DNA from: Podarcis pityusensis
Lineage: Eukaryota
Length of the DNA: 64,000 nt
Assembly: GCA_964106645.2 (NCBI GenBank)
Contig: OZ067038.1
Strand: one strand, 5' to 3'
Shown: one piece after another, positions 24,101-64,000 of the stretch
How positions within the stretch are numbered: the first letter of the stretch is position 1
Layout: the number at the start of each line of letters is the position of its first letter
Translations under genes and position numbers: made by a program
Notes under the pieces: generated by a model
Database searches by the model: none
Told to the model about the DNA's origin: nothing
What the model saw: the letters and a program-made list of their open reading frames with translations, nothing else

Positions 24101-27100
24101 TGTGGTATATCCCTTTGGTTTGGCCTTGTTATATTCCAGTTTGTAGAGGATCTGGCAGCAAGAAAGGGCCAAGTTAAGTACAAGCAGTCATTAGAAATAG
24201 CATTTTAATTTCTTTTTAAAAAATACCCAGAGTGAACAAATATGTATACAACAATATGTATTGTTGTAGTTTACCGTAGACTATCTGAAGGAACTGGAGA
24301 AGGCCTGCTCCATCCTCTTTCCCATTCACTCCCATGGGTTTTCCACTGATGTGCTGAACAGGACTGGATTGGAGGATATATCTCCCCAGTCAGAACCTTA
24401 CCCACCCAGTGCACTGTCCCAGCCTCCAAGCTGGTCCTGCTTGTGGATTTCACAGCTGGTTGGCCAGGATGCTGGACTGTGATGGGCCTTTTGACCCGAT
24501 CCGGCGGGCTTCTTCTTACGTTCTTCTATCCTTAACCCACCCTCCATTTGCAGGAGGAAGCACACAGTTCCTCCCCATCTCCTAGTGAGCTGTCTCCTAC
24601 TTGTAAACATGGGGACAGGATGTCCAAATGCTGCCCAGGTACACACAGTCTTGCTCAGGTGAAAAACTGCATGCTTGATTGCGGCACTAAAGTAGGAAAT
24701 CAGCTAGGCAGTTTTCACCTTCACGATCTGAGCACTCGCTACACAGGCAGCATTGGGATGTTCTGCTTCGGCAGGTGGAACTGGTAGAGAGAGGGATGAT
24801 GTGCTAAGTGTTTAGGGTCATAATCATGGCTATTGGGCTTGGACTGCAACCCTTCCAACCATTGCCACTTATCTTATCTGGACCTGCTTTTTACTCAAAA
24901 GTCTGCATGAGCGCATCCTCCTGGTAAGCTTTCCACTTTCCTAACGTATGCTTTGAAGAGTAGGAAGAGCAATGGAGAAAGCATGGTACATTGTTTCTTA
25001 CACTAAGTATGTAACCTCTCACATGTGGGTGTGCTACTTGTGCCCAGCCAGTGGCTTCCTATCTACAATGGAGAGAAGGCAGAGGGTCAGGGCAGATTGT
25101 GGATGGAAACATGGGTCGGGTGGTGTAGGAGGATACTGGCTAGTATAAGGAAGACGCCAGGCTCAATCCCTCCATAGGTAAAGGTAAAGGTAAAGGGACC
25201 CCTGACCATTAGGTCCAGTCGTGGCCGACTCTGGGGTTGCGGCGCTCATCTCGTTTTATTGGCTGAGGGAGTTGGCGTACTGTTCCGGGTCATGTGGCCA
25301 GCATGACTAAGCCACTTCTGGCAAACCAGAGCAGCGCACAGAAACGCTGTTCACCTTCCCGCTGGAGAGGTACCTATTTATCTACTTGCACTTTGACGTG
25401 CTTTTGAACTGCTAGGTTGGCAGGAGCAGGGACCGAGCAATGGGAGCTCACCCCATCGCGGGGATTCAAACCGCCAACCTTCTGATCGACAAGTCCTAGG
25501 CTCTGTGGTTTAACCCACAGCGCCACCTGCGTCCCTCCCCCCCTCCATAGGTAATTGACCAATTTTTGGGTTAGTCACTCTTTCTCAGCCTAACCTACCT
25601 TACAGGGTTGTTGGGATAAATTAGACAAAGCCAATTTCACCACTCTGTGCAACTTGGAAGAAGAGTTGGATGGGTGTGGAGCTGTCCCAGCTACCCCCAG
25701 CCACACAATGCATCTGTCTTCCATAACACGGTGCGTCCCAGATGTTGTCAGACTGCAACTCCCATTGACCTCAGCCAGCATGGCCAATAGTGAGAGAGGA
25801 TGGGAGTTGTAGTCCAGCAGCTTCTGGAGGGCACCAGGCTGGGGGAGACTGCACTAAGCAATTGGTGGTTGCTGAAGTTCCCAAACTCACTCATTTGCCT
25901 GAGCATTTTTAGGCAGACAGTCCTTGTTGCTGTTTCCCTCAGCTTCGCAGTTCCTAACACCAGCTCTGACCCCAAACTGGCAAGCTGTGTTTCTCTTACT
26001 GTCCTCTTCCTCTCCCATGCCATCAGTCCGAAGAAAAACCCTGGCTATCCCCATTGTTGTCACACAAAGATTAGTCCAGAAAGACACCATACTGTTCCTC
26101 CCCCCCCCCCATTGGTCATGACAATTTCCACACTTACATCACTGATTTGCTTGTTGACTTTCGTCGTCCGCAGGTGTTCCGGAGTATCCACAATCGATGT
26201 AAACTTGTCCTTCTGCTTTTCATACAGCTGTTTGTATTTGTACTGTGGAATTTTTTTTAAAAAAAGCAGCAGTGAATGGTGGGGAATGACAGCAAATCAA
26301 CAACAACACCCCACCACAAATGCACATTTTAAGAAGAGTCCTAGCCTTAGCCTGCCTGTTCCAGCAGCTGTCATAGAAGTCAACCGAAACTGTGTACGTG
26401 GGGGGAGCCAAGCCCACACGATGGAAATGCCGGAGTTAAGCTTGCTTTTGGTTACGCTGACTTCTAAACAGGTCAAGTGTGGGGCAGTGGCTGGAGGACT
26501 AGATTTGGACATGGGAACTTGTATCTAAACACCCTTCAGCTATGTGCTTCCAGGGTTGGCCTTTGGCAAGTCATCATCTTTAACTTATCCCACAGACTTG
26601 ATGCGAGGATAAAAATGGGATAATCCTTTGCATCACCCTTCCCCGGGCCGGAAGCAAACACAGTTCCAATAAAGGAACTAAACTAGCAGGGTTTGCCGCT
26701 AGTGGATAAAACCCCAAGCTCTACGATCGCACTAAGAAATCAAAGGAGCCACTTAGCCGAATAAGAAGAGTGGGTGAGTAAGCATTTAAAAAATGGGTTT
26801 AAGAAGAGTTTCCCCCTCCCCCCGCTCAGTCAAGCCCACAAAGTCTACTGCAGGGGTAGGCAAACTAAGGCTCGGAGGCCGGATCTGGTCCAATCGCCTT
26901 CTAAATCCGGCCCATGGACGATCCGGGAATCAGCGTGTTTTTACATGAGTAGAATGTGTCCTTTTATTTAAAATGCATCTCTGGATTATTTGTGGGGCAT
27001 AAGAATTCGTTCATTATTTTTTCCAAAATATAGTCCAGCCCCCCACATGGTCTGAGGGGCGATGGACCAGCCCACGGCTCAAAAAGGTTGCTGACCCCTG

Positions 27101-32500: not shown

Positions 32501-35500
32501 GTATTTCACCTACAAAAAAAAAGCATTTGATTTTTAAAATAAGCAACACACTAATCGCCTGATATTACAGGGTTGACATCAGTGATGGTGTAATCCTATA
32601 CATGCGTACTCAGAGAAGCAACTCCCATTGTGTTATTTATCCGTTAAACTTCTATCCTGCCCTTCTCCTGAAGGAGCTTCAAAGAGGCAATGGGACTTGC
32701 TTTCTAACATTCAGTGGAACTTGCTTCCCAATAAGTGGATTTAGGTTTGAAACCAGAATGTCCTGGCACAGCTACGCCACTTTATATAGACAACAGAGCT
32801 TAGTGCATGTAGGAATTTCTGGCCAGTCCATGTAACACACGGGGAAACAGTCAGAAGAAGTGGAAGTGTGACAGAAGCTCAGGTGGAGAATGGGGCCAGA
32901 GCACAAAGTATAAGGGAAACAAATGCTATAAAACATAAAAAGAGGCAGGGTGGGCCAGAATTAGCTGAGGCTTTGTGTTAGGAGGACCAGGTGTCAAGTA
33001 GACTATAAGGCCTGATAAGACAGGGGTTGTACCTGAGGTCACCCCTGCTTTCTCTCTGAAAGGAATCACATCCACCAGAGGCATGACCAGGGGTACTTAC
33101 ATTATATAGGAAAAGGGGAGGTAAAGGAGTCTGAAGTAGTGGGGAGAGAGAATAACCAGTGCCCCATAGTATATATAAATAAGGTAAAAGGTAAGGGTAA
33201 AGGGACCCCTGACCACCAGGTCTAGTCGTGACCGACTCTGGGGTTGCGATGCTCATCTTGCTTTATTGGCCGAGGGAGCCAGCATACAGCTTCCGGGTCA
33301 TGTGGCCAGCATGACTAAGCCGCTTCTGGCGAACCAGAGCAGCGCCCGGAAACGCCGTTTACCTTCCCGCCGGAGCGGTACCTATTTATCTACTTGCACT
33401 TTTGACGTGCTTTTGAACTGCTAGGTTGGCAGGAGCAAGGACCGAGCAACGGGAGCTCACCACGCCGCAGGGATTCGAACCGCTGACCTTCTGATCGGCA
33501 AGCCCTAGGCTCTGGTTTAACCCACAGCGCCACCCGTGTCCCTACTCAGGAATATGCATATATATATCCAATATACATACTTTGCTGATATCATCAGTGA
33601 CCTTGCGGTGATACACAATATCCAAGGCATCTTTCACTGTGTGGTATTTACCCTTGGCTTTCTCAAATGTTTCTTTGTAGCGCAGCTGATAAAAACAAAA
33701 TAAAACAAAAAAGTATGAAGGCATCAGTTTTAAAATGTAGCAAACATTATTTTCACATTTTCCTCAGAGGTTGTAATAGACAGGTAGAAAAAGCAGACCA
33801 TCAAGTCCGCTTTATGCATATTATAAACAGCCAAACAATCCTAGCTTACTCCATGGTGCTCCTTGTAAATGTAAATCCTACTCCCCATTTAAGTATAGCT
33901 TTAATTTATTTAACTTTCTATTATAACCCGAGTTTTGCATATTCTCCTGTCTATTTCAAGACAAGAGTCCAGATCAAGAAACCATATTATCTAACTCCCC
34001 CCCTCCTCAATTTCTTCATTCTTCTTCTGCTGCCAACACAATTATACTCAAAAGTATCCATGTGGACAGAAAGGGTTGCGTCCATCTGAAACATGGTCAG
34101 AGCAGACCCACTGGAACATGACTAAAGTCCATTGGTTTTTAGTGATTCTACTCTGAGTATGTTTTAGCTGGATAAAACCCAAGAAGCCAGATTCAACTAG
34201 CCTAGTGCAAGGACTCCCACCAGTTCAATGGGGCATTCCCCCTCCCCTTGCATGCCCCCCACCTTTCCTAAATCTGCCTTGGAACATCGAGAGAACCCAC
34301 AGCCTAGTGCCCAGGAGGAGGAGAGGAGAGACTGAACAAATTAGTATGATGTTGATCTTTACCCCAACAATCTTGTGTCAAAACAGATTTATATAATTTT
34401 TTATGCATTATTTGTATTAATGTTAGTATGTAAGATTTCACAGGCAATGAGAAATAGACTCCATATGAATGTCAGACCAAAGAAACTTGATCTTATGTGC
34501 AGTTGGCTCACTCCTCTGTGCCACTGCTTCTCAGGAAGAACTCCGTCACAATTGTTATAGAACTATGAATAGTTGTCTAATGGCTGCTGACTCTTTTGAT
34601 CCCTTTCCATATTAAAAAAAAATGCACCATGAGTATATAAGCCATACAGAGCTAGAGAATAATCCAAATAAGTAAATGATCTGGAAGAATTCTCACTGGT
34701 TTCAGGTTCAGTTCACAGACCTTTCCTGAACATTACTCTACATTCATATCTAGACCACATAAAAAACCCCAAACCATTCCATTTTCATCGGATACTTACA
34801 TCACTGGCATTCAAGTAGGCCTTCTTAGCTCTAATCAGGATTGGTGTATCAGCGACAGTTACATACTTGTGCTTCAGTTTCTCATATTGGGATTTGTATT
34901 TATTCTAAATTAAGCAGGGGGAAATGGAAGAAAAAAATAAGTACACCAAGGTGCTCACGCGATACAGCATTAACTGCATGCAAGTGGGCACTTAAAAAGA
35001 CACTCGGATGTATGAGTTAACTAAAATAAATTTATTCATCATGCCAACGATTTGTTTTTCCTTCCAATAAAGTCAGCTAGAGGCCTGCGGCTGGTATATT
35101 CACTGGCAAATTGCAAAGCATACCACCCTAATCTGCAGACAATCTCCCTGCCATTTCCATGTGTGCCCTTCCCGCCTCTGTGATGCTTGCCTAAATCAGC
35201 CTTCTCCAATGAGGTGCCATCCAGCTGTTTGGGGCTACAGCTCTCATCAGCCCCAGACAGCATTGCCAGCAGTCAAGGATGATGGGAACTGTAATCCAAT
35301 CAGCGGCAGAGGAAGGGGGGTGCAGTGGGGGCAGTCCACCCTGGGTGTCACCACTGAGGGGGGTGACAAAATGCCCGGCAGCACTCACCGCGGGGCCTGC
35401 AGTGTGCCCAAGCCACGTGTCTCTCCTGGGAGTGACGTGGTGGCTCTGCGCTGCCCCAAATGGTCTGCCCATTGTCTCCCCCTCAGCTGCAGGGCAGCTG

Positions 35501-54300: not shown

Positions 54301-57300
54301 AAAGATGTCAAGTCCCGCAGGGCCCTGGTCTCTTGTGACAGAGTGTTCCACCAGATCGGAGCCACAGCTGAAAAGGTCCTGGCTCTAGTTGAGGCCAGCC
54401 TAACCTCTCTGTGGCCCGGGACCTCCAAGATGCTTTTGTGGGCGGAGGGAGGGGAAGATAATCCTGCCTCAGGAAATAGCTACGTGAAGGATAAGGTATA
54501 GTAACAAACAAGAAATGTCAGGGGCAGGGTTAGTGTTAATAAGCATCATTCTTTCCCAAATATGGGGACACAAGGTGGGGACATTAATGCCAGAAAGTGG
54601 AGCCTCCTTGTTGAAGAAATTATCATGGTTCTAGACTGCAATCCTATGTACATTTACATAAGAGTAAGTTTTATTGATCTCAGTGGGAATTATTTCCGAA
54701 TATACACTTATAAGATTGCGCAGATAACAGGTCTTTTGTATACTTGACAATATTTTGACATGAATTTGCTTTGACTTGCTTTCTATTTTGCTAGATGCCT
54801 TGTTTTGTTATACTGACATGCATTTTGCTATTTTGTGCTAGTTGTGTTGCTTTCTGCTTTGCTTTTAGCCACTTTGGGCTTCCTTTGGGAACATAAAAAA
54901 TATAAACATAAATGAAATGCAAACAAAAGAAGGCCAATTTAAGAAGGTGGTGGACTCTCCTTCCTTGGAGGCTTTTAAGCAGAGGTTGGATGGCCATCTG
55001 TCATGGAAGCTTTAGCTGAGATTCCTGCATTGAAGGGGGTTGGATTAGATGACCCTTGAGTCCATTCCAACTCTAGGATTCTATGAAAATCTCTGCGATT
55101 GATACTTTTAACTAGTTGTTATTACCTCACTTAAAATGTCCTGAGCGTGTTTGACGTGATTGACAGAGACAGAGTCATTTGGCATCCAGCCAATTCCACG
55201 CAGCCATTCCAAGTCGGATTTATAAACAGCCTGCAGAGTCAGGGGAAAACAAGAACAGTTATTTGCAGCACTTTTTTCCCTGCATGGAGTGTTTCATACC
55301 AAACTTGATTGCTTTTAACTGAAAGGGAAAAGAGGGCTTGTTTTCCAATGGCCTACAAAAAGAATGGGATAATAGAAAACTGAAAGAAGGAACTATTCAG
55401 GCACAGAATATACCAGGAACAAATATTTCACTCCCCACTTTGATTATGCTGTGCCTACCACCATCTTGCCTTCTGCAAGGTGGTGCTATATCCTATGTTT
55501 GCTCGACATATTCAAATCAGGTAATACAATCATGAAAAGAATGAGAGCTCAAATCTATACATAATGGAAAGCAATTATGTGCAATTATATGCATGTGCAT
55601 AATTGAGGCCTCAATGTCCTGTGTGCTTTCTTAAAGACATCTGATGATTGTCCAAACATTACTGAATTTCTATATTAAAAAAATCACATATAGTATGGAT
55701 CTTACCTGTTCACACAAGTATTCTAAATATTTATTATTTTTTATGAAAAGGAATGTAATAATTGTGGAGACAAAATATCAAACACTTATCATTGTAGAGG
55801 CAAATGAGAGACGAAAGAGGGCGATAGACAAGAAGCTATCAAGAAAGAGGAATTTCAACAACAACCAAAGCACTCACGTCACTCTGTAATTCATACGCTT
55901 TCCTGGCCTGGATGACATCATTCTGGTCAGGGAGACACGTCCATTCATGCAGGTAGCGGCGGTAATCAATGTCACTAACAAGCTTCTGACAGTTCTTGGC
56001 CAGCAAGACGGACAGCATGTCAACAGGGCTGTGGATCTTCGTCTTCAATTGATTATATACTTTCTTGTACTCCCGCTCACTTTGCATTTTAGCGACGTGC
56101 ATAGCCAGTACCATCTTGGGATCGTCGTTAACGTCTCGGCATCCCACATGGTGTCCAAGTTGCTTACGGTAGCCTTCCTTGTATTTGTACTAATAGGATT
56201 TGAAAAAATACATATACAATTAGAATCTTCATCTTCGTTATCTCAGAGTGTAGAAAGATTGATAACATTGGCAAGAGTTTTCCATTTAACTCCGTTCCTA
56301 AGATGCTAAACAAAGGCTGCATTCATGCTCACATTTACTTGCAATCCAACTATTGAGCAAATCACATATTTTTGAATTCTGCACATCACCTATCCTTTAC
56401 CTGACCTTTTTTTGACCAATGGCAGAGCTTAATATTTCATCAGGATAGTTGACAATTTATTTGGAGCACGTGAATAGCCTTCGCCAAGATGGCACCCTTC
56501 ACATGTTTCGGACAACAACTTCTATCAGTCATGTTGGATGAGGCTGATGGATGTTTTAGTTCAAAACATCTGGAGGGCACTATGTTAGTGAAAGCTGGCC
56601 CATAATGTCCTTATATCTTGCCTTGAACTGAGAACTTTAATATATATTTTCTTTCCTGCATTTTAATTCCATTAGATACAAAAGTCTAGAGACAATGGAT
56701 TACCAAACACTATCAAATTCGATTTGCATACTTACATCACTGGCAATTTCTCTTGAGGCTTTGGCTGTTTTGATTGGGACTGCATCTGCTCTCAGGTCAA
56801 TATATTTCTTCATGTCATCCCAAGATTCCCTATAAAGTTTCTACAATAAAAAAACCAACAACATTATATTGTCATTATCCTTTTTCAGCACTTACATATA
56901 TGAAAGCTCACTGTCAATCAGCTTTTACTTTTTCCTAATCACTCCTGTTTTTTCAGGTAAGAGTTACAGATTATCTCCATATAAAATCATGTAAGGAAAA
57001 GTATTTAAACTGCATGTAAGTAATTGTGGATAACAAGTGCTAACATCTGTTTTGTGGCATCTCCACAAGCACAATAGATTGCCAGTTTGCACCTATGCAG
57101 GTGCAATAACCCACATAGAATTTACATGGGTGCTTGCTGCATAATGAACTTGTAACATCCAAAGCCCCCTTCATCTGAGTAACTGAAGAAGGTTGTAGAG
57201 TTGTATCATAAGAAGAATGTTAGTGATTTACTTACATGGCTCACATTGATAGCATTAGCCCTGGAAAGCACGATTTCTGGTGTGTCTGGCATCACATGGA

Positions 57301-60300
57301 TCATAACTTTATCTTTATCCCAAGCTTCTCTGTACTTTGCCTGAAAAAAACATCGAAATTATCTTGTAATTTCTTTTGCACCAGTGCTCATATTCCTACA
57401 TAATTTCTCTTTAACTGTAGGAACATGAATAACTTTTCTTTTAATACAAATAGATGCTCCATGCTACAAACTGATAGGGAGGTTTGTAGCATACTTAAAA
57501 TAATGTCACATTACTCAAAGGAGATACATACAAGACTCAGTTGCTCAGCGTTAGTTTTGGCAAGGACAACTTCAGGTGTGTCGACGATGTTGGTAAATTT
57601 CAAACGATCCCGAGGAGTGCGATAAACGTTGTCACTCAGAATTTCCTGGGCAAATTTCACCCTCTTCACTATTGGAGACTCATGTGGGATCCATCCAACC
57701 CCCCGGAGCCATTCCAGATCTGATTTATACACAGCCTATGAGAGAAAATTTCAGGGAGGGAGAGCAAGATATTTCAGTTCAATTCAAAAGAAATACTCTA
57801 TGTGGTAAATAGAATGAATGGAACTTCAGAAAGTCAGGACAAACTTGTCTCAGTTACTTCATCAGGATCTAAGCAGTACTATCTCTCTGGACTAGGCCAC
57901 AATGTTTCTTTGACCTCCAGTCATATTTCACACCAGCATTTATAGCTTCGATCAGCACTATGCTGGCTGGGGAGTTGGGGACCAAAACATCTGGAGAGTT
58001 CCAGACTTGTGTAGATTGGGCTAGATAGAGTGGGCAGAAAGATCATCAAATCCATACATATGATGGATTCGGTTATGGATTCATTAGCTATTTTTAGATA
58101 TGCCATGTCTATCACGTCACTCTTGTCTGCATGATGTGTTGGACATTCTGAATTAAAAATCTTTCAGTTCTTCCTCCCAAGGTACTCATGATGAAATCAA
58201 GTGAAGATTAAATTACATGAAAATGTGACAAGGCCAGTTTTCATTAACACAACAAAGTAAAAATTAAGAAAAGGAAATCTTCCACAACTATCTATCACGA
58301 TGTCTCTTTTGCCTTCTGTCCTAGCAGTAATGTGTGTTTGCAAAGGACAGATATATCGCTTTGCAGAGGACAGATATACTTACATCACTCTGTAGTTCGT
58401 AGGCCTTCCTTGCCTGGATCACATCATTCTGGTCGGGCAGACAGGACCACTGGTGCAGATGTTGACGATAGTCCACCTCACTTACTAAAGACTGGCATAG
58501 CTTGGCTGCTTGGACAGACAGCATGTCCACAGGTATAGTAATATTGGCTTTGGATTTGTTGTAAGCTTGCTTATACAACCGGTCATTCTGCATCTTCAAT
58601 ACTTTGGCAGCAAATGAAAGTTTAGGGTCCTCCTTCACTGAAGGGCATCCAATGTAGTGGCCTTTCTGTTTCTCATGAGCTTCTTTGTACTTGTACTGAG
58701 CAGGAAAGAGAATTGGAAGTTACAGTTATTTGAACAATTTCCAGGAGATAAGTTAGAAATTCTTGATGCTTCAGTTTTTAAGGGATTTAGCTATGGAATA
58801 ATGAGAGGGTAAATAAAACATAGTAAGGCTCCCTAAGTCTGTCTTTATGAAATATTTACCTGGATTTGTTATTAGGGATGAGAGGGAAATGCGGTTCATT
58901 TTGCATTTAAAGTCACACTTCCATAATTCACACTTTATGAATACTGTATACAGACATGTATACGTATTAGGAAAAATTCACATGAAAATCCTAATGAATT
59001 TTTATTAGAACTACAAAAAAAACAAAAACAAGTCAATGTGGAAATGTGGAGAATTGATAGTTTTGCCACCCCAATTGCATACATCCTAAGCCTAAGTAAA
59101 AAGATCTATTTTTTTCAAATAACTGAATAATATATATGTGGTTGCAAATTTTACAAAGTCACAATGTCTTTTGAAAAGCACAGCCCACTTTGTGTAATAG
59201 TGAAAAGCTACTGATGAAATTTGGCTATCCAAATAAATAGTTCAGAAATGGCAATCATATGCATTTTTACTTGGAACAAAGCCCAGTTGGGCATGGTGGA
59301 ATTTACCTATCGGAGTAAAAATGCATAGGATGGTGTGCTCAGGGTGCTAAACTTGATTTGGAAACTATGCAAGATTATTTTATTATTATTATTTAATTAA
59401 TTTATATACCACCCTATACCCAGAGGTCTCTGACATTCCACAACTTAAGAGAAAACTTTAAAGTGGTTGTAAAGAAAGGGGAAGGGGGGGGGGAAGAAAC
59501 ACTTGGGTGTCTTTAACAACAGGAAGCAACAGATTTAATTATTGTAAAGTCTTTACAGTGCCAAGTATCTCCAAATTTATCACAGTTAGCTCTTTGGCAT
59601 TTAAAATAATGGACTATATTAAACTTTCTGATTGTTTGAAAGAAGACACTTTCATAAATTGTAAAAGAATGGAAAGAATGATGTCATGGACATGCAGTAG
59701 AGGAACTTGTGTAAGGCTGGATAAATACGGTTTTGAGGCTGAATTATCAATTGTTCATATACTTTGACATGTGCACTCATCATATGAAAAGATATAGCCA
59801 TTTGAGAAGTAAATGTTAAATAAAAGAGATTGTACCTCACTGGCAATTTCTCTGGAGGCTTTGGCATGCTTGACTGAAATAGCATCACCTCTTATGTCAT
59901 ATCCTTTTGCTTTGGCCTCGTCCCAGGCTCCAGTGTAATGTTTCTGCAATCAGAATAAAATTCACAGTTTTCAATGTAATAAAATACATGATGAAAACCA
60001 ACTATAGACATTCCTCAACCAACACTGCGATCCAATGCCAGTTTACTTAGAAGTAAATTCAACTGTGCTCAATGGGCCTTACTCCGAAGTAAATATGGAA
60101 TGCATAGGACTGCAGCCAAAAGAGTAAAAATGTGAATATACAAACACTGCATAAATATAGCTTATACAGATATATTTGTTTGCATGCATGCATACGTCTT
60201 ATATAACTGACGCCGACAATTTATTGGGGTCTAGATAAGAAACAGAATGATTGTGGGGAAGTACAATTTAGTAATAATAAAGCTTGATAGGCAGAAGATA

Positions 60301-63300
60301 TTGAAGAGAGACTGACATTATCCAAATCACAAAATCATCAAAGCGTGTAACAATGAAACACTCTGACAACGTTGGGATTTGGAACAAGTCAGTCTCTTTT
60401 TAATATCTTCTGTCCATGAAGTTCAGTTAATTCTCTTTATTACGTCTGAATAAAAACTCACAAGTAAGAGCCAAATGCCTTCTTGTTTTTAAGAACAGTT
60501 AATGATGGGAAGTTGCATTTGACACAGTTGAATAGGTACAGATGCATCACTACACACATTCCACTCATGGGTATATAGTTAGTTAATTCTCTTACATTGC
60601 TGATATTCAGAGCATTAATCTTGGACTGCAGCATCCCAGGGGTGTCTGAAGGAAGATGGAACTGAGTCTTCTCTTTATCCCAGGCTTCACGATACAGATT
60701 CTAAGAAGGAAGTGAAGGCATAAATGATTGCACTGCATTACAAAAACCTCTTATTTTTCAAAGGTATGCAACTATAACTCACGCGTTCCCAATACCAATT
60801 TGTCAACATAATGAATACAATAACTGGGTAATTCCCAAGCTTACCTCACTGACTTGTTGGGCATTGATCTTAGCCAGGACAACGGGTGGTGGGTCAGCAA
60901 TACTTGTAAATTTCAGTGCATCTGGACGTTGCTTATACAATCTGTCATTCAGGATATCTTGGGCGTGCTTCACTTTGAGCACTTCCACAGAGCCCTCTGG
61001 CATCCAGCCAATACCACGCAGCCATTCTAGGTCTTGTTTGTAGACGTTCTGCAAAGGAAACAATTGGGCTATTAACATTATGGCTGAAAATCTTTCTTCC
61101 AATTTATTAAGAAGGCTGTTGCTGCGGCTCGGCCCGTCATAATACAGAACTGCTCAGCTTCCATGGCTGGCCAATCACAAGAAGTGCATACCACTAATGT
61201 GGGTATTAATAAACAGCCCTCTTTTTATCCCCTTTCAAGCTGTATATGGCAGAACAGCAACAGTACTGGCCATGAGTTATACAGATTCTAGTAAAGAACT
61301 CCAACTCAGGCAATCCAGTCAAGGAAAAATAGGCTGCTTAATGCAGCTTAAATGAATTCTTTTCACACCTAAAATTCTCTGGAATAGAAAGTAAAAGACC
61401 AATGGAAATGGACACCTCTAGAAGTGTTTAGTTCTATGCAGCTGCCACAAATTCAGGTTTTGGTGCCTTACTTCTTCAGATCATGGTAGAGTGAATTAGC
61501 CTTGTATGCATGGATACATGTGTTGAATTGAGGTCTCAATGCCCCCTTGTGTTCTTTCTTAAAGAAGTATGATGATTGTCCAAACAATACCAAATTTATA
61601 TGTTAAAAAATTCACATGTACTATGACTCTTAATATGTGACACGTGTTCACAGAAGTAAAACATTTATTACTTTTTAATGAAAATATATGTAAAAATTGT
61701 GGAGACAAAATATAATTGTAGAGCCAACAGTAATAATCCACCAAATGTCATGACAGAGGAAAGAGAGTGATAGACAAGAAGCCATCATAAAAGAGATATT
61801 GCACCAATAACAAAATCACTCACATCGCTCTGTAACTCATAGGCTTTCCTGGCTTGGATGACATCATTCTGGTCAGGCAGGCAGGTCCATTCATGCAAGT
61901 AGTGGCGGTAATCAATGTCACTAACAAGCTTCTGACAGTTCTTGGCCAGCAAGACGGACAGCATGTCAACAGGACTGTGGATCTTCGTCTTCAATTGATG
62001 ATATACTTTCTTGTACTCCCGCTCACTCTGCATTTTAGCTACGTGCATAGCCAATACCAACTTGGGATCGTCGTTAATGTCTCGGCATCCCACATGGTGT
62101 CCAAGTTGCTTACGGTAGCCTTCCTTGTATTTGTACTGATGGGATTTGAAAAAATACATATACAATTAGAATCTTCACCAAAGGTATCTCAGATTCAGAG
62201 CTTTTTTTCAGCTGCAACTCACTTCTGGCACTTCTGAGGTGGGTGCCATTATATTGGTAATGTAAATATTCAGCACATGCATAGATCTTTGAATTTCACA
62301 CATCCTTCATCTGACATTTTTTTGACCAACAAGATCAAAGCTTTGGTCCTGAGAGATTAATATTCTACTTCAGAAACCTTCATCAGGATGCTGGACATTT
62401 TACTTGGAGCATATTTAAAGCAAACAGCAGCCTTCGCCAAGATGGCACCCTTCACATGTTTTGGACAACAACGTCCATCAGTCATGCTGGATGAGGCTAA
62501 TGGATGTTTTAGTTCAAAACATCTGGAGGGCACTATGTTAGTGAAAGCTGGCCCATAATGTCTCTATATCTTGCCTTGAAAATAAAACTTTAATATATTT
62601 TCTGTTTCCTGCATTTTAATTCCATTAGATACAAAAGTCCAGAGACAATGGATTTCCAAACACTATCAAATTCTATTTGCATACTTACATCACTGGCAAT
62701 TTCTCTTGAGGCTCTGGCTGTTTTGATTGGGACTGCATCTGCTCTCAGGTCAATATTTTTCTTCATGTCATCCCATGATTCCCTATAAAGTTTCTACAAT
62801 AAAAAACCAACAACATTATATTGTCATTAACCTCTTTCAGCACTTATATATTTATGAAAGCTCACTGTTCATCAGCTTTTACTTTTTTCTAACCACTCCT
62901 GTTTTTTGCAGGTAAGAGATGCCTTAAACATTACAGATTATCTACATATAAAACTATGTAAGGAAAAGTATTTAAAGTGCATGTAAGTAATTATGGATAA
63001 CAAGTGCTAACACATCTGTTTTGTGGAATCTCCACAAACACAATAGATTGCCAGTTTGCATACAAACAGCTAAATAAATTCCTTCCAGTAGCACCTTAGA
63101 GACCAACTAAATTTGACATTGGTATGAGCTTTTGTGTGTATGCACACTTCTTCAGATATGGAGTGTGCATGCACACGAAAGCTCATACCAATGTTAAACT
63201 TAGTTGGTCTCTAAGGTGCTACTGGAAGGACTTTTTAAATTTTGTTTCGACTATGGCAGACCAACACAGTTACCTACCTGTAACTAGCTAAATAAATGCA

Positions 63301-63824
63301 GGTGCAATACCCCACCTAGAATTTACATGGGTGCTTGCTGCACCCAACTTATAACATCCAAAGCCCCCTTCATCTGAGTAACTGAAGAAGGTTGTAGAGT
63401 TGCATCGTAAGAAGAATGGTAGTGATTTACTTACATTGCTCACATTGATAGCATTAGCCCTGGAAAGCATGATTTCTGGTGTGTCTGGCATCACATGGAT
63501 CGTAGTTTTATCTTTATCCCACGCTTCTCTGTATTTCGCCTACAAAAATACAGAATTATCTGTTAATTCCTTCCGCAGAATAATTAAAATAATGTCACAT
63601 TGCTGAAAGGAGCTACATACAAGACTCAGTTGCTCAGCGTTGGTTTTGGCAAGGACAACTTCAGGCGTGTCAACGATGTGGGTAAATTTCAAACGATCCC
63701 GAGGAGTGCGATAAACGTTGTCACTCAGAATTTCCTGCGCATATTTCACCTTCTTCACTTCTGGAGATTCATTGGGGATCCATCCAATCCCTCGGAGCCA
63801 TTCCAGATCTGATTTATACACAGC
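906..63824 (-). CDS. NEB: Nebulin gene, partial (70 traced coding exons; gene extends beyond both window ends)
   Basis: Spliced minus-strand exons give continuous SDxxYK modules with WLxGxG every 7 modules; order and sequence match recalled vertebrate nebulin (e.g. [49 protein letters not shown]). Confidence 0.98.
1892..1931. repeat. (GT)n microsatellite
   Basis: direct. Confidence 0.95.
2756..2848 (-). CDS. NEB: NEB exon, 93 nt, Z-disc simple repeat
   Basis: [31 protein letters not shown]; AG/GT. Confidence 0.93.
3974..4078 (-). CDS. NEB: NEB exon, 105 nt
   Basis: [35 protein letters not shown]. Confidence 0.93.
5308..5659 (-). mobile_element. Sauria SINE, full length
   Basis: Minus strand: tRNA-like head with A box and GGTTCGAATCC B box, (ACCTTT)n tail; TSD TTATCAATGGATG at 5295-5307 and 5660-5672. 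Confidence 0.9.
5942..6046 (-). CDS. NEB: NEB exon, 105 nt
   Basis: [35 protein letters not shown]. Confidence 0.94.
6312..6416 (-). CDS. NEB: NEB exon, 105 nt
   Basis: [35 protein letters not shown]. Confidence 0.94.
6565..6678 (-). CDS. NEB: NEB exon, 114 nt
   Basis: [38 protein letters not shown]. Confidence 0.94.
6997..7349 (-). mobile_element. Sauria SINE, full length
   Basis: Near-identical to 5308 copy; TSD TCCTAAGATTTAA at 6984-6996 and 7350-7362. Confidence 0.9.
7875..7985 (-). CDS. NEB: NEB exon, 111 nt
   Basis: [37 protein letters not shown]. Confidence 0.94.
8443..8553 (-). CDS. NEB: NEB exon, 111 nt
   Basis: [37 protein letters not shown]. Confidence 0.94.
8718..8915 (+). 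mobile_element. tRNA-derived SINE remnant (MIR-like/L2-tail type)
   Basis: GCAGCGTGGTGTAGTGGTTAGAGCGTTGGAC A box, TTCAAATCCCC B-box remnant, A-rich tail. Confidence 0.6.
10739..10843 (-). CDS. NEB: NEB exon, 105 nt
   Basis: [35 protein letters not shown]. Confidence 0.94.
11814..11918 (-). CDS. NEB: NEB exon, 105 nt
   Basis: [35 protein letters not shown]. Confidence 0.93.
12753..12857 (-). CDS. NEB: NEB exon, 105 nt
   Basis: [35 protein letters not shown]. Confidence 0.93.
13135..13432 (+). mobile_element. L2-like LINE 3' fragment with (TG)n and (AAT)n tail
   Basis: FSVVVPxLWN-like remnant, TTGTAAACTGCCC...GGTATAGAAAT terminus. Confidence 0.5.
13673..13783 (-). CDS. NEB: NEB exon, 111 nt
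   Basis: [37 protein letters not shown]. Confidence 0.93.
16852..16882. repeat. (AT)n microsatellite
   Basis: direct. Confidence 0.95.
17247..17345 (-). CDS. NEB: NEB extra/alternative module exon, 99 nt
   Basis: [33 protein letters not shown]; ttgtag acceptor, gtaaga donor, open and phase 0, xxY...DTP...SS module pattern. Confidence 0.82.
18112..18163. repeat. (GAAA)n microsatellite
   Basis: direct. Confidence 0.95.
18453..18590 (-). mobile_element. tRNA(Lys)-like SINE with CR1-type 3' tail
   Basis: Minus strand CTCTTAATCTCAGGATTGTGGGTTCGAGCCCCACG followed by AGATTCCTGCC...CCCTTCCAACTCT. Confidence 0.65.
19021..19125 (-). CDS. NEB: NEB exon, 105 nt
   Basis: [35 protein letters not shown]. 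Confidence 0.92.
19273..19374 (-). CDS. NEB: NEB exon, 102 nt
   Basis: [34 protein letters not shown]. Confidence 0.93.
19657..19767 (-). CDS. NEB: NEB exon, 111 nt
   Basis: [37 protein letters not shown]. Confidence 0.93.
20923..21033 (-). CDS. NEB: NEB exon, 111 nt
   Basis: [37 protein letters not shown]. Confidence 0.93.
21152..21256 (-). CDS. NEB: NEB exon, 105 nt
   Basis: [35 protein letters not shown]. Confidence 0.94.
21961..22065 (-). CDS. NEB: NEB exon, 105 nt (degenerate WLKG-position module)
   Basis: [35 protein letters not shown]. Confidence 0.93.
22177..22281 (-). CDS. NEB: NEB exon, 105 nt
   Basis: [35 protein letters not shown]. Confidence 0.93.
23111..23215 (-). CDS. NEB: NEB exon, 105 nt
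   Basis: [35 protein letters not shown]. Confidence 0.93.
24044..24151 (-). CDS. NEB: NEB exon, 108 nt
   Basis: [36 protein letters not shown]. Confidence 0.94.
25182..25540 (-). mobile_element. Sauria SINE, full length
   Basis: Same family; TSD CCCTCCATAGGTAA at 25168-25181 and 25541-25554. Confidence 0.9.
26138..26242 (-). CDS. NEB: NEB exon, 105 nt
   Basis: [35 protein letters not shown]. Confidence 0.94.
26851..27100. mobile_element. hAT-superfamily non-autonomous element (MITE)
   Basis: TIRs CAGGGGTAGGCAAAC / GGTTGCTGACCCCTG; perfect 8-bp TSD GTCTACTG (26843-26850, 27101-27108). Confidence 0.88.
28056..28160 (-). CDS. NEB: NEB mutually exclusive exon B (human exon 144-like), 105 nt
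   Basis: [35 protein letters not shown]; cag/gtaagt. Confidence 0.9.
28538..28649. repeat. 49-bp tandem repeat (2.3 copies), each unit a hairpin
   Basis: CAAAGTA..ATAGGCTCACTCAAAAAGCTG..GCT.TTTTG(G/A)GTGG twice, plus a partial third unit. Confidence 0.85.
28803..28907 (-). CDS. NEB: NEB mutually exclusive exon A (human exon 143-like), 105 nt
   Basis: [35 protein letters not shown]; cag/gtactg. Confidence 0.9.
29447..29501. repeat. (AAAG)n microsatellite
   Basis: direct. Confidence 0.95.
29529..29716 (-). mobile_element. Sauria SINE, 5'-truncated, divergent subfamily
   Basis: AGGTAAAGG tail plus GGGTCATGTGGCCAGCATGACTAA core; head absent. Confidence 0.8.
29831..29935 (-). CDS. NEB: NEB exon, 105 nt
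   Basis: [35 protein letters not shown]. Confidence 0.93.
30740..31099 (+). mobile_element. RTE-clade LINE 3' fragment
   Basis: [32 protein letters not shown]...[22 protein letters not shown]2H2 finger; frameshift and stop; (GAA)n-like tail; CATGGTC on both sides. Confidence 0.75.
31258..31362 (-). CDS. NEB: NEB exon, 105 nt (WLRGIG)
   Basis: [35 protein letters not shown]. Confidence 0.94.
32405..32509 (-). CDS. NEB: NEB exon, 105 nt
   Basis: [35 protein letters not shown]. Confidence 0.94.
33180..33542 (-). mobile_element. Sauria SINE, full length
   Basis: Same family; head ~40 nt from the donor of exon 33581-33685; no clear TSD. Confidence 0.88.
33581..33685 (-). CDS. NEB: NEB exon, 105 nt
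   Basis: [35 protein letters not shown]. Confidence 0.94.
34800..34904 (-). CDS. NEB: NEB exon, 105 nt
   Basis: [35 protein letters not shown]. Confidence 0.93.
35301..35623. mobile_element. GC-rich hAT-type non-autonomous element
   Basis: TIRs CAGCGGCAGAG / CTCCGCCGCTG; 8-bp TSD AATCCAAT (35293-35300, 35624-35631). Confidence 0.82.
35917..36021 (-). CDS. NEB: NEB exon, 105 nt
   Basis: [35 protein letters not shown]. Confidence 0.94.
36765..36888. mobile_element. Palindromic squamate MITE (GACTACAAxTCCCATC hairpin family)
   Basis: GGCCCTCC..GTTTTGGGACTACAATTCCCATCATCCCT / AGGGATGATGGGAGTTGTAGTCCCAAAAC..GGAGGGCC; decayed relatives near 10430, 25735, 35200, 56480, 62430. Confidence 0.7.
37680..37784 (-). 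CDS. NEB: NEB exon, 105 nt
   Basis: [35 protein letters not shown]. Confidence 0.93.
38222..38345 (+). mobile_element. tRNA(Lys)-like SINE with CR1-type 3' tail
   Basis: AGCTCAGTCAGTAAAGCATGAGACTCTT...GGTTCAAGCCCC...CCTTCCAAC; same family as 18453. Confidence 0.65.
38607..38717 (-). CDS. NEB: NEB exon, 111 nt
   Basis: [37 protein letters not shown]. Confidence 0.93.
40089..40187 (-). CDS. NEB: NEB exon, 99 nt (WLRGLG)
   Basis: [33 protein letters not shown]. Confidence 0.92.
40347..40394. repeat. (CA)n(GA)n compound microsatellite
   Basis: direct. Confidence 0.95.
40453..40557 (-). CDS. NEB: NEB exon, 105 nt
   Basis: [35 protein letters not shown]. Confidence 0.93.
40675..40779 (-). CDS. 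NEB: NEB exon, 105 nt
   Basis: [35 protein letters not shown]. Confidence 0.94.
41799..41906 (-). CDS. NEB: NEB exon, 108 nt
   Basis: [36 protein letters not shown]. Confidence 0.93.
42304..42411 (-). CDS. NEB: NEB exon, 108 nt
   Basis: [36 protein letters not shown]. Confidence 0.93.
42740..42847 (-). CDS. NEB: NEB exon, 108 nt
   Basis: [36 protein letters not shown]. Confidence 0.93.
43473..43577 (-). CDS. NEB: NEB exon, 105 nt
   Basis: [35 protein letters not shown]. Confidence 0.93.
44376..44480 (-). CDS. NEB: NEB exon, 105 nt (WLKGIG)
   Basis: [35 protein letters not shown]. Confidence 0.94.
45072..45269 (-). CDS. NEB: NEB exon, 198 nt (2 modules)
   Basis: [45 protein letters not shown]...QLSD. 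Confidence 0.94.
45281..45331. repeat. (TAT)n(TAC)n compound microsatellite next to the acceptor of exon 45072-45269
   Basis: direct. Confidence 0.9.
46547..46660 (-). CDS. NEB: NEB exon, 114 nt
   Basis: [38 protein letters not shown]. Confidence 0.93.
46754..46861 (-). CDS. NEB: NEB exon, 108 nt
   Basis: [36 protein letters not shown]. Confidence 0.93.
46914..47194. mobile_element. PIF/Harbinger-like MITE
   Basis: TIRs GGCTTTGTCTACACTGGAGCA / TGCTCTGGTGTAGACAAGCCC. Confidence 0.65.
47928..48032 (-). CDS. NEB: NEB exon, 105 nt
   Basis: [35 protein letters not shown]. Confidence 0.93.
48135..48239 (-). CDS. NEB: NEB exon, 105 nt
   Basis: [35 protein letters not shown]. Confidence 0.93.
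48820..48924 (-). CDS. NEB: NEB exon, 105 nt (WLKGIG)
   Basis: [35 protein letters not shown]. Confidence 0.94.
49957..50154 (-). CDS. NEB: NEB exon, 198 nt (2 modules)
   Basis: [45 protein letters not shown]...EILSD. Confidence 0.94.
50263..50376 (-). CDS. NEB: NEB exon, 114 nt
   Basis: [38 protein letters not shown]. Confidence 0.94.
50474..50581 (-). CDS. NEB: NEB exon, 108 nt
   Basis: [36 protein letters not shown]. Confidence 0.93.
51314..51418 (-). CDS. NEB: NEB exon, 105 nt
   Basis: [35 protein letters not shown]. Confidence 0.93.
52075..52179 (-). CDS. NEB: NEB exon, 105 nt
   Basis: [35 protein letters not shown]. Confidence 0.93.
52269..52373 (-). CDS. NEB: NEB exon, 105 nt (WIRGCGW)
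   Basis: [35 protein letters not shown]. Confidence 0.93.
52526..52837 (-). CDS. NEB: NEB exon, 312 nt (3 modules)
   Basis: [33 protein letters not shown]...AYDLQSD. Confidence 0.95.
53094..53201 (-). CDS. NEB: NEB exon, 108 nt
   Basis: [36 protein letters not shown]. Confidence 0.93.
53293..53394 (-). CDS. NEB: NEB exon, 102 nt
   Basis: [34 protein letters not shown]. Confidence 0.92.
53592..53690 (-). CDS. NEB: NEB exon, 99 nt
   Basis: [33 protein letters not shown]. Confidence 0.92.
54062..54430 (-). mobile_element. L2 LINE 3' end
   Basis: [45 protein letters not shown] (L2 ORF2 C-terminus), 3'UTR GGGCGGGATATAAAT. Confidence 0.8.
54930..55086 (+). mobile_element. CR1 LINE 3' end
   Basis: [18 protein letters not shown] remnant and TTCCAACTCTAGGATTCTATGA terminus. 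Confidence 0.8.
55126..55230 (-). CDS. NEB: NEB exon, 105 nt (WLRGIGW)
   Basis: [35 protein letters not shown]. Confidence 0.94.
55878..56189 (-). CDS. NEB: NEB exon, 312 nt (duplicate copy A)
   Basis: [34 protein letters not shown]...AYELQSD. Confidence 0.95.
56736..56840 (-). CDS. NEB: NEB exon, 105 nt (copy A)
   Basis: [35 protein letters not shown]. Confidence 0.94.
57236..57340 (-). CDS. NEB: NEB exon, 105 nt (copy A)
   Basis: [35 protein letters not shown]. Confidence 0.94.
57532..57735 (-). CDS. NEB: NEB exon, 204 nt (copy A)
   Basis: [21 protein letters not shown]...[12 protein letters not shown]...EQLSL. Confidence 0.94.
58384..58695 (-). CDS. NEB: NEB exon, 312 nt
   Basis: [38 protein letters not shown]...AYELQSD. 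Confidence 0.95.
59836..59943 (-). CDS. NEB: NEB exon, 108 nt
   Basis: [36 protein letters not shown]. Confidence 0.94.
60596..60700 (-). CDS. NEB: NEB exon, 105 nt
   Basis: [35 protein letters not shown]. Confidence 0.94.
60845..61048 (-). CDS. NEB: NEB exon, 204 nt
   Basis: [23 protein letters not shown]...AQQVSE. Confidence 0.95.
61824..62135 (-). CDS. NEB: NEB exon, 312 nt (duplicate copy B)
   Basis: [34 protein letters not shown]...AYELQSD. Confidence 0.95.
62689..62793 (-). CDS. NEB: NEB exon, 105 nt (copy B)
   Basis: [35 protein letters not shown]. Confidence 0.94.
63080..63285. mobile_element. Penelope-like element remnant (inverted-repeat form)
   Basis: ~70-bp inverted arms TCCTTCCAGTAGCACCTTAGAGACCAAC...; CTGAAGA...GAAAGCTC hammerhead-type core; flanking 12-bp direct repeat AGCTAAATAAAT. 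Confidence 0.75.
63435..63539 (-). CDS. NEB: NEB exon, 105 nt (copy B)
   Basis: [35 protein letters not shown]. Confidence 0.94.
63621..63824 (-). CDS. NEB: NEB exon, 204 nt (copy B)
   Basis: [21 protein letters not shown]...[12 protein letters not shown]...EQLSL. Confidence 0.94.
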
Positions 63825-64000
63825 CTGTGAGAGAAAATGTCAGAAAGGAAGAGCAAGATATTTCAGTTCAATTCAAAACAAATACTTCATGTGGTAAATA
63901 CTGTAGAATGAATGGAACTTCAGAAAGTCAGGACAAACTTGTCTCAATTACAGCATCAAGATCTAAGTAGTACTATCTCTCTGGACTAGGCCAAAATGTT

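Follow-up and report, generated by a model that had tools for sequence, protein, structure and literature searches.

A five-exon duplication in the central nebulin gene of Podarcis pityusensis and its likely gain of one super-repeat

How much of the nebulin gene was copied, and how many super-repeats were gained, is the question raised by a 64,000-nt stretch of Podarcis pityusensis DNA (contig OZ067038.1, assembly GCA_964106645.2; hereafter the window), in which a series of 204/105/105/312-nt exons recurs almost identically. The initial annotation had read this pattern as a tandemly duplicated eight-exon, two-super-repeat unit, a lizard counterpart of the human triplicate region (TRI; exons 82-89/90-97/98-105 of NEB; Sagath et al. 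2022, PMC9109913), with more copies possible past the window end. According to the survey of 53 vertebrates by Gohlke et al. 2021 (PMC7754682), super-repeats have been gained independently mainly in the central zone of nebulin, with expansion zones at human SR11-13 or 17-21 and totals of 21-31 super-repeats; in the parts of that source used here, the species set comprises three reptiles (22, 26 and 29 super-repeats) and no lizards.

The assignment to a minus-strand nebulin gene holds, as all four exons scanned contain the Pfam nebulin module (PF00880) above the cut-off, and the exons form seven-module super-repeats with a WLxGxGW motif in every 204-nt exon. The exon series is colinear with residues 491-1752 of a bird protein (P0002), whose R block is matched by exons 1-3 of both 204/105/105/312-nt blocks (68-74%) but not by their fourth exons (49%), and whose Q4 is matched by the 312-nt exons of both blocks of the other type (69-70%). 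Assignment of exons 1-3 to P or Q was not clean against a rodent protein (P0001), and orthology to viper and alligator super-repeats was judged by hand comparison with the table of Gohlke et al. (PMC7754682) rather than from a tree. In these hand counts, the second half of the exon beginning at 69625 matches viper P at 28/33 positions and viper Q at 19/33, the second half of the exon at 61048 matches viper Q at 30/33 and viper P at 21/33, and the exon at 65778 matches alligator P3 at 30/36 and alligator Q3 at 24/36. By the same approach the exons are closest to those of viper, which supports an assignment at the level of squamates, with Q4 corresponding to the human SR17-22 region and R1-R3 to human SR22. 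The comparisons suggest that P1-3 and Q1-3 represent two different ancient super-repeats, P and Q, each with a viper and alligator counterpart; P and Q are already separate in those species. Searches among proteins of up to 2000 aa returned no named squamate nebulin, and the 17 short protein matches compared reached at most 79% identity, none of them across a diagnostic junction.

Self-comparison of the window together with 200 kb beyond it recovered two copies of a tract of five neighbouring exons (312/204/105/105/312 nt) with their introns, 3353 nt long downstream and 3545 nt upstream, the last 1058 nt of the latter lying past the window end (Table 1). Between copies, exons are 92-98% and introns 84-94% identical. 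Four exon pairs lie within the window (R1'/R1, R2'/R2, R3'/R3 and the exon in the P4 position/R4), offset by 5925-6201 nt and with alignable introns; here the initial annotation was right about both the near-identical recurrence (92.4-97.1%) and the four intervening exons of 204/105/108/312 nt. The fifth pair, Q4'/Q4, completes the tract beyond the window. The match is far above chance, with a score of 951 for the Q4-R1 intron pair against a shuffle maximum of 31 and a BLAST E of ~0. Intron-level similarity stops at extended position 65058; the breakpoints are imprecise at both ends, since a weak 83-nt remnant of likeness reaches ~65350 (score 46, shuffle maximum 32) and the R3-R4 intron is gappy in its second half. 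The duplication of these five exons is real.

The remaining three exon pairs of the supposed eight-exon unit (Q1/P1, Q2/P2 and Q3/P3) are 75-76% identical at a dS of 0.89, and their introns align no better than chance, with 25, 68 and 70 of 100 shuffles equalling the observed score. Divergence as deep as that between ordinary super-repeats, which the initial annotation had named as counting against its reading, is thus found for three of the eight exons but not for the five at 92-98%. A search of the species' own genome found the tract in two places, and a 364-kb self-comparison likewise contained no third copy; 2572 nt of single-copy DNA separate the two. Extending the comparison past position 64000 upheld the duplication, but neither the eight-exon unit nor the additional copies.

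All 16 exons checked are in phase 0, stop-free and flanked by AG..GT splice sites, and across the five duplicated exons dN is 0.023 and dS 0.144. The extra exons sum to 726 nt, or 242 codons, which is seven modules in frame and hence a whole super-repeat. W, P, Q, R and S each occur once in alligator SR12-16 and pig SR15-19 (PMC7754682), and comparison of the Podarcis order W-P'-R'-Q-R-S with alligator W-P-Q-R-S yields one extra super-repeat; it is likely that nebulin gained one super-repeat here, not two. The resulting total of 24 falls inside the published range and adds one squamate point, a modest contribution, to a survey with no lizard among its reptiles. A 6-kb periodicity can thus mask a gain of one super-repeat, and counts based on self-similarity only may mislead.

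Table 1 Features of the duplicated nebulin tract and its surroundings (positions in the window; L001 is the extension past 64000).
Feature	Position	Strand	Evidence or remark
Downstream (3', ancestral-position) tract copy: Q4, R1, R2, R3, R4 and introns	55589..58941	-	Self-comparison, identities, shuffles
Exon R4, 312 nt, 3 modules	55878..56189	-	P4-like sequence, as in viper
Exon R3, 105 nt	56736..56840	-	Best match R block of bird protein P0002 (74%)
Exon R2, 105 nt	57236..57340	-	Sequence comparison
Exon R1, 204 nt, 2 modules	57532..57735	-	WLRGxGW motif present
Exon Q4, 312 nt	58384..58695	-	Sequence comparison
Exon Q3, 108 nt, single copy	59836..59943	-	Old paralog of P3
Exon Q2, 105 nt, single copy	60596..60700	-	Old paralog of P2
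Exon Q1, 204 nt, single copy	60845..61048	-	Paralog of P1, mosaic identity
Upstream (5', putatively derived) tract copy, in-window part	61514..64000	-	Self-comparison; seen in runs X2, X12
312-nt exon in ancestral P4 position, followed by Q1	61824..62135	-	94.6% to R4, dS 0.26
Extra exon R3', 105 nt	62689..62793	-	97.1% to R3
Palindromic interspersed repeat, high-copy, MITE-like, upstream copy only	63060..63296	.	Depth >1e5
Extra exon R2', 105 nt	63435..63539	-	92.4% to R2
Extra exon R1', 204 nt	63621..63824	-	93.1% to R1
Upstream tract copy beyond window	L001:1-1058	-	Contains extra exon Q4'
Extra exon Q4', 312 nt	L001:492-803 (64492-64803)	-	98.4% to Q4
Exons P3, P2, P1	L001:1671-1778, 3213-3317, 5422-5625 (65671-65778, 67213-67317, 69422-69625)	-	Ancient paralogs of Q3-Q1, outside copied tract

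We consider it probable that the two tract copies amount to a net gain of one seven-module super-repeat, by which W-P-Q-R-S became W-P'-R'-Q-R-S, with Q4-R1-R2-R3 apparently inserted between P3 and P4. An earlier conversion in squamates may have made exons P4 and R4, both 312 nt long, nearly identical; the same is seen in viper, where R4 equals P4 by eye except at one residue (PMC7754682). This likeness would have provided a homology anchor one period apart, at which ectopic recombination could have copied the block upstream of R4 to the position upstream of P4, its 5' end being joined without homology inside the P3 intron. The route may have been a single step, or a gain of two super-repeats followed by the loss of one, and a single genome cannot separate the two. 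In the latter scenario, unequal crossover at P4 and R4, for which near-identical exons one period apart are a natural substrate, doubled Q1-R4, and P4-Q1-Q2-Q3 of the first copy was then deleted, the eight-exon unit being a transient stage. This yields the observed exon order exactly and likewise leaves one additional super-repeat today, and great apes and gibbon carry duplicated units of two super-repeats (PMC7754682); however, it requires two events, and a second set of Q1-Q3 or its introns has left no trace, so that we regard it as conceivable but lean against it. Under the preferred reading, a net gain of one super-repeat, we predict that splicing includes the extra exons, which would lengthen the thin filament by ~38.5 nm according to the published ruler relation, and selection would retain whole super-repeats only.

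Divergence between the copies is uneven, with 75 mismatches at 1275 core intron sites (5.9%) and 79 at 520 flanking sites (15.2%; Fisher p=1.3e-9), and homogeneous within the core (p=0.93). Patchy gene conversion may later have re-homogenised this core of ~2.4 kb, and the greater divergence of the flanks could derive in part from older, separate conversion tracts instead of from the age of the duplication. A similar mosaic is evident between P1 and Q1, whose first halves are 87.6% identical, with 54 of 58 acceptor bases matching, and whose second halves are 63% identical, suggesting a short conversion tract over the first half and the 58-nt acceptor. Identity heatmaps of super-repeats underestimate duplication age where conversion has produced such mosaics. 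The P1/Q1 similarity, together with the Y-X-Y-X alternation of exon types at an eight-exon period, would fit a true old tandem duplication of eight exons in which the first three exons and their introns diverged and the five-exon part was held alike by conversion. This is very improbable, being contradicted by the dS of 0.89, introns at shuffle level, hand counts that place the three exons nearer to different viper and alligator super-repeats than to one another, and the distinctness of P and Q in both of those species.

Two of the 20 sequencing runs carrying the sequence, X2 and X12, were examined as DNA, with contig depth not to be read as true copy number. Run X2, a second sample from the best-matching species, contains separate contigs for the two copies at a depth ratio of ~1:1 (20.7 and 24.7), a collapsed Q4 (52.4), and a 1516-nt contig (23.8) that spans from Q4' to beyond P3 with 2 differences. 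Run X12, from another species at a distance of ~1.3% (17 differences across 1340 nt of three contigs), shares the 5' junction and has a Q4 depth of 69.5 compared to 33-34 for single copy; among the X12 contigs listed, one over the site of the palindromic repeat has the insert-free form (46.8). By contig depth, both samples, from two species, look two-copy. A recent copy-number variant that still segregates, as in the human triplicate, could be entertained given the 98.4% identity of the Q4 copies and the two DNA runs examined, but it is hard to reconcile with an intron divergence of 6-16%, numerous indels, a repeat insertion specific to one copy, a junction common to both species, or the two-copy depths, and we consider it very unlikely. 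The divergence between copies is 4-12 times the distance between species, and the diverged introns argue for an old, settled state. An early duplication on which gene conversion acted afterwards fits this layered divergence better than a copy-number variant of the human type. An assembly or haplotig artefact, which the initial annotation had also argued against, is rejected: although the assembly can contain such artefacts, as a 4.5-kb duplicate of 99.9% identity at another place in the extended region shows, nothing at this site suggests one, the window contains no N, the copies' introns are 84-94% alike, and both copies and their unique junction were recovered in X2 and X12. In run X16, from a third species and labelled as RNA by guess, one contig splices P3 to Q4 at the predicted sites; this join could also come from skipping one super-repeat. 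Run X15, whose RNA label is also a guess, contains a Q4-R1 join and does not cover P3.

The resemblance to the human triplicate proposed at the outset holds in part. Both are intragenic multi-exon duplications with introns in the same central part of the gene that keep frame and seven-module register, and the Podarcis block, which shares Q4-type and P4-type exons with TRI, overlaps its edge. TRI, however, consists of three 10-kb copies of an eight-exon P+Q unit with near-identical proteins and polymorphic copy number, whereas Podarcis has two copies of a 3.4-3.5-kb tract of Q4, R1-R3 and a P4-like exon, most of which belongs to the R block lying 3' of TRI, with a net gain of one super-repeat; neither an eight-exon, two-super-repeat unit nor at least three similar head-to-tail copies were found. 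No variation was seen in the two DNA runs, and the locus therefore does not serve as a natural model for copy-number disease of the human triplicate. The proposed expansion hotspot agrees with the main gain site of Gohlke et al. (PMC7754682), but the suggestion of variable copy number in lizards finds no support in the two samples examined as DNA. The event is an ordinary one in a region whose repeated expansion in vertebrates is established: like the gains in that survey, it concerns a whole super-repeat in the neighbourhood of human SR17-21 and is independent of those in other lineages, but the copied block is Q4-R1-R2-R3, with single-copy Q1-Q3 between copies.

It is possible, though we put this forward tentatively and think it rather doubtful, that exon-level gene conversion shapes the central region of nebulin as much as tandem duplication does, a squamate-wide overwriting of R4 by P4 having made the recombination anchor that allowed a non-tandem, one-sided copy of Q4-R1-R2-R3, with conversion continuing to even out the copies in ways that differ between related species. 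If true, this would explain the repeated expansion of this zone at breakpoints that differ among apes, cow, birds, viper and lizards. A literature search, with subscription papers outside its scope, found nothing on lizard nebulin repeats or nebulin gene conversion, and the text of Gohlke et al. 2021 (PMC7754682), in the parts used here, does not mention the latter. P1-3 joined to Q4-R1-R3 is absent from the arrangements compared in their Table S2. By eye, that table has Q four times in viper, which shares the P4-like R4 exon with Podarcis, repeated R1-R2 in cow, repeated Q in chicken and falcon, and an additional Q-like block ahead of P in turtle, all of which rearrange the P/Q/R neighbourhood as Podarcis does.

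The window (G000:C1:104718001-104782000 in a genome of 1.5 Gb) was analysed together with 200 kb to its right and 100 kb to its left; coordinates past 64000 extend its numbering rightward. The gene, on the minus strand, encodes nebulin: all four exons scanned matched PF00880, and a bird nebulin fragment, P0002, is colinear with the exons between 55230 and 31362. Counting super-repeat starts gave 24 super-repeats in the whole gene (some modules of the last two being without a location), inside the vertebrate range of 21-31 found in the examined parts of Gohlke et al. (PMC7754682), whose Table S2 supplied the species sheets compared here. Among those compared by hand, the viper was nearest to these exons, so the organism would be placed at squamate level; "lizard" was the word of the initial annotation.

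Successive four-exon super-repeat blocks are termed W, P, Q, R and S, with a digit for the exon and a prime for the upstream copy. The exon sizes and coordinates first annotated were correct: a 204/105/105/312-nt series recurs with identities of 93.1, 92.4, 97.1 and 94.6% and alignable introns, and the copied tract holds a further exon, 98.4% identical between copies. In a self-comparison, the match at intron level was restricted to two copies of 3353 and 3545 nt, which flank 2572 nt of single-copy DNA. The copied unit is therefore smaller than the eight exons proposed, comprising five exons and their introns. For the remaining three exons of the period, identity to their partners at 69625-65671 is only 75-76% (dS 0.89). 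Their introns align at shuffle level, with 25, 68 and 70 of 100 shuffles scoring as high, as against a score of 951 and a shuffle maximum of 31 for the Q4-R1 intron pair. The further copies suspected beyond the window did not materialize, as neither a search of the organism's own genome nor self-comparison of the extended locus found a third. Between 69625 and 55878, each of the 16 exons checked is in phase 0, free of stops and bordered by AG/GT.

In the sheets consulted, blocks W, P, Q, R and S occur once each, in that order, in alligator SR12-16 and pig SR15-19. We assigned P versus Q by hand counts of residues in the latter half of the 204-nt exons against these sheets: the exon at 69625 shares 28 of 33 residues with viper P and 19 with viper Q, and that at 61048 shares 30 with viper Q and 21 with viper P. 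For the exon at 65778, 30 of 36 residues agree with alligator P3 and 24 with Q3. Computed comparisons with P0002 matched exons 1-3 of both R-type (X) blocks to R (68-74%) and the 312-nt exons of both Q4-type (Y) blocks to Q4 (69-70%); the 312-nt exons of the X blocks did not match its R4 (49%), and in the rodent protein P0001 P was not cleanly separable from Q. By eye, the viper exon after R3 differs from viper P4 by one residue, and a P4-like R4 is thus common to both squamates. From the hand counts, the bird matches and this viper exon, the order here is therefore W, P1-3, [Q4', R1'-R3', P4], Q1-3, [Q4, R1-R3, R4], S. Set against W-P-Q-R-S, exons Q4'-R3' are the surplus; their 726 nt make up 242 codons and seven modules, or one super-repeat. 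A P4-like exon follows R3 at 55878-56189 and in viper SR22/23, whereas alligator, turtle, birds and mammals differ in the sheets seen; this is probably a squamate-shared exon overwrite, without mention in the examined parts of PMC7754682.

Beyond the exon order, copied extent, intact frames and two copies observed, the route can be proposed. P4/R4 homology may have anchored ectopic copying of the block upstream of R4, with a non-homologous 5' join within the P3 intron; an equivalent route would be the gain of two super-repeats and then the loss of one. The core may later have been smoothed by conversion. According to the parts of PMC7754682 examined, nebulin tolerates whole super-repeats only, each setting about 38.5 nm of thin filament; a filament longer by about 38.5 nm is predicted if the extra exons are included.

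Divergence between the copies falls into layers. Of 1275 core-intron sites, 75 are mismatched (5.9%; homogeneous, p=0.93), as against 79 of 520 in the two flanks (15.2%; core versus flanks, Fisher p=1.3e-9), the 81-nt R1-R2 intron (86% identical) being excluded from this test. Exon dS between copies ranges from 0.05 to 0.26; jointly, the five exons give dN 0.023 and dS 0.144, a pattern consistent with purifying selection, although conversion complicates the ratio. The copies have diverged by roughly 4 to 12 times the distance between organisms A and G, so the duplication is older than these species. Short conversion-like tracts lie near the copies: P1 and Q1 agree at 54 of 58 acceptor bases and are 87.6% identical in the first half and 62.6% in the second, and W4 is 90% alike to P4/R4 in nt 115-210 and 73-75% in module 1. 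Two 312-nt exons of different super-repeats further right, 98.4% identical with about 200 nt of alignable flanking intron and differing neighbouring exons, look like another such tract.

Part of the stretch was contained in 20 of the 24 runs listed, and four runs were compared over 62080-65800, with contig depth taken as a rough guide only to copy number. Run X2 (organism A) has the two copies on separate contigs (depth 20.7 and 24.7), a collapsed Q4 exon (52.4) and a 1516-nt contig (23.8, 2 differences) spanning Q4' to past P3. Run X12 (organism G) has this same junction on a 472-nt contig (33.9) with an adjoining contig over P3, and Q4 at 69.5; its three single-copy contigs carry 17 differences from the reference over 1340 sites (1.3%). 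In X16, putative RNA of organism H, a contig links P3 with Q4 through the predicted splice sites, although this could alternatively reflect skipping of one super-repeat. Over exon R1 (L031:7738-7792, window 63738-63792), X12 has one contig with mostly downstream-copy letters where organism A has two, which may point to homogenisation specific to the species or to bubble removal by the assembler.

The duplication works like, and belongs with, other nebulin super-repeat gains. That this central zone has gained super-repeats repeatedly and independently was already reported by Gohlke et al. (in the sheets seen, Q four times in viper, Q repeated in chicken and falcon, R1-R2 repeated in cow), and here too a whole super-repeat was added in the same zone. 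Their text mentions neither lizard nor gene conversion, and a search of the literature outside subscription papers found none on this nebulin case. The initial annotation had drawn a parallel with the human triplicate, which is P+Q three times (Table S2) in units of 8 exons and 10 kb each (PMC9109913, seen in part); that type is not represented here, since neither an eight-exon unit nor three near-identical tandem copies were found. As for varying copy number, runs X2 and X12 both look about two-copy by contig depth.

Coordinates of the duplicated tracts and of other repeats in and around the gene (window numbering, extended rightward with 64001 = L001:1, unless a segment is named)
Feature	Coordinates	Strand	Remarks
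Downstream copy	55589-58941	minus	
Upstream copy	61514-65058	minus	
204/105/105/312-nt exons	57735-55878; 63824-61824	minus	downstream; upstream
Further copied exon	58695-58384; 64803-64492	minus	downstream; upstream
High-copy palindromic repeat	63060-63296		upstream copy only
High-copy repeat	L001:1080-1330 (65080-65330)		adjoins 5' edge of upstream copy, breaks up residual homology; present in X2 and X12
312-nt exon pair	73667-73978; 77757-78068		L001, L002
Second one-super-repeat duplication	79159-81005; 82323-83831		L002
First super-repeat, duplicated	115833-119333; 120891-124399		L006, L007
Segment array	L030, about 570-7730 nt left of window start		
Interspersed repeats	5307-5652; 6997-7352; 25176-25538; 33182-33544		
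4.5-kb direct duplicate	L022:3174-7659; L022:7860-L023:2347		outside nebulin

The same gene holds a second intron-alignable duplication of one super-repeat, with three exon pairs 94-99% identical in nucleotides and 100% in amino acids and introns at about 79-88%. Its first super-repeat is also duplicated (seven exon pairs, 82-100% in nucleotides, patchy); SR1 duplication in mammals and SR2 triplication in viper are described in the parts of Gohlke et al. examined. The array of mutually similar segments of about 100 nt is likely to represent the 93-nt Z-repeat exons of nebulin. The 4.5-kb duplicates are 99.9% identical and 200 nt apart, and the fetched region contains exactly 200 N, so a spurious duplication spanning an assembly gap is probable, the placement of the N being presumed. 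Four interspersed repeats of about 350 nt in the window, about 90% alike, are SINE-like in appearance.
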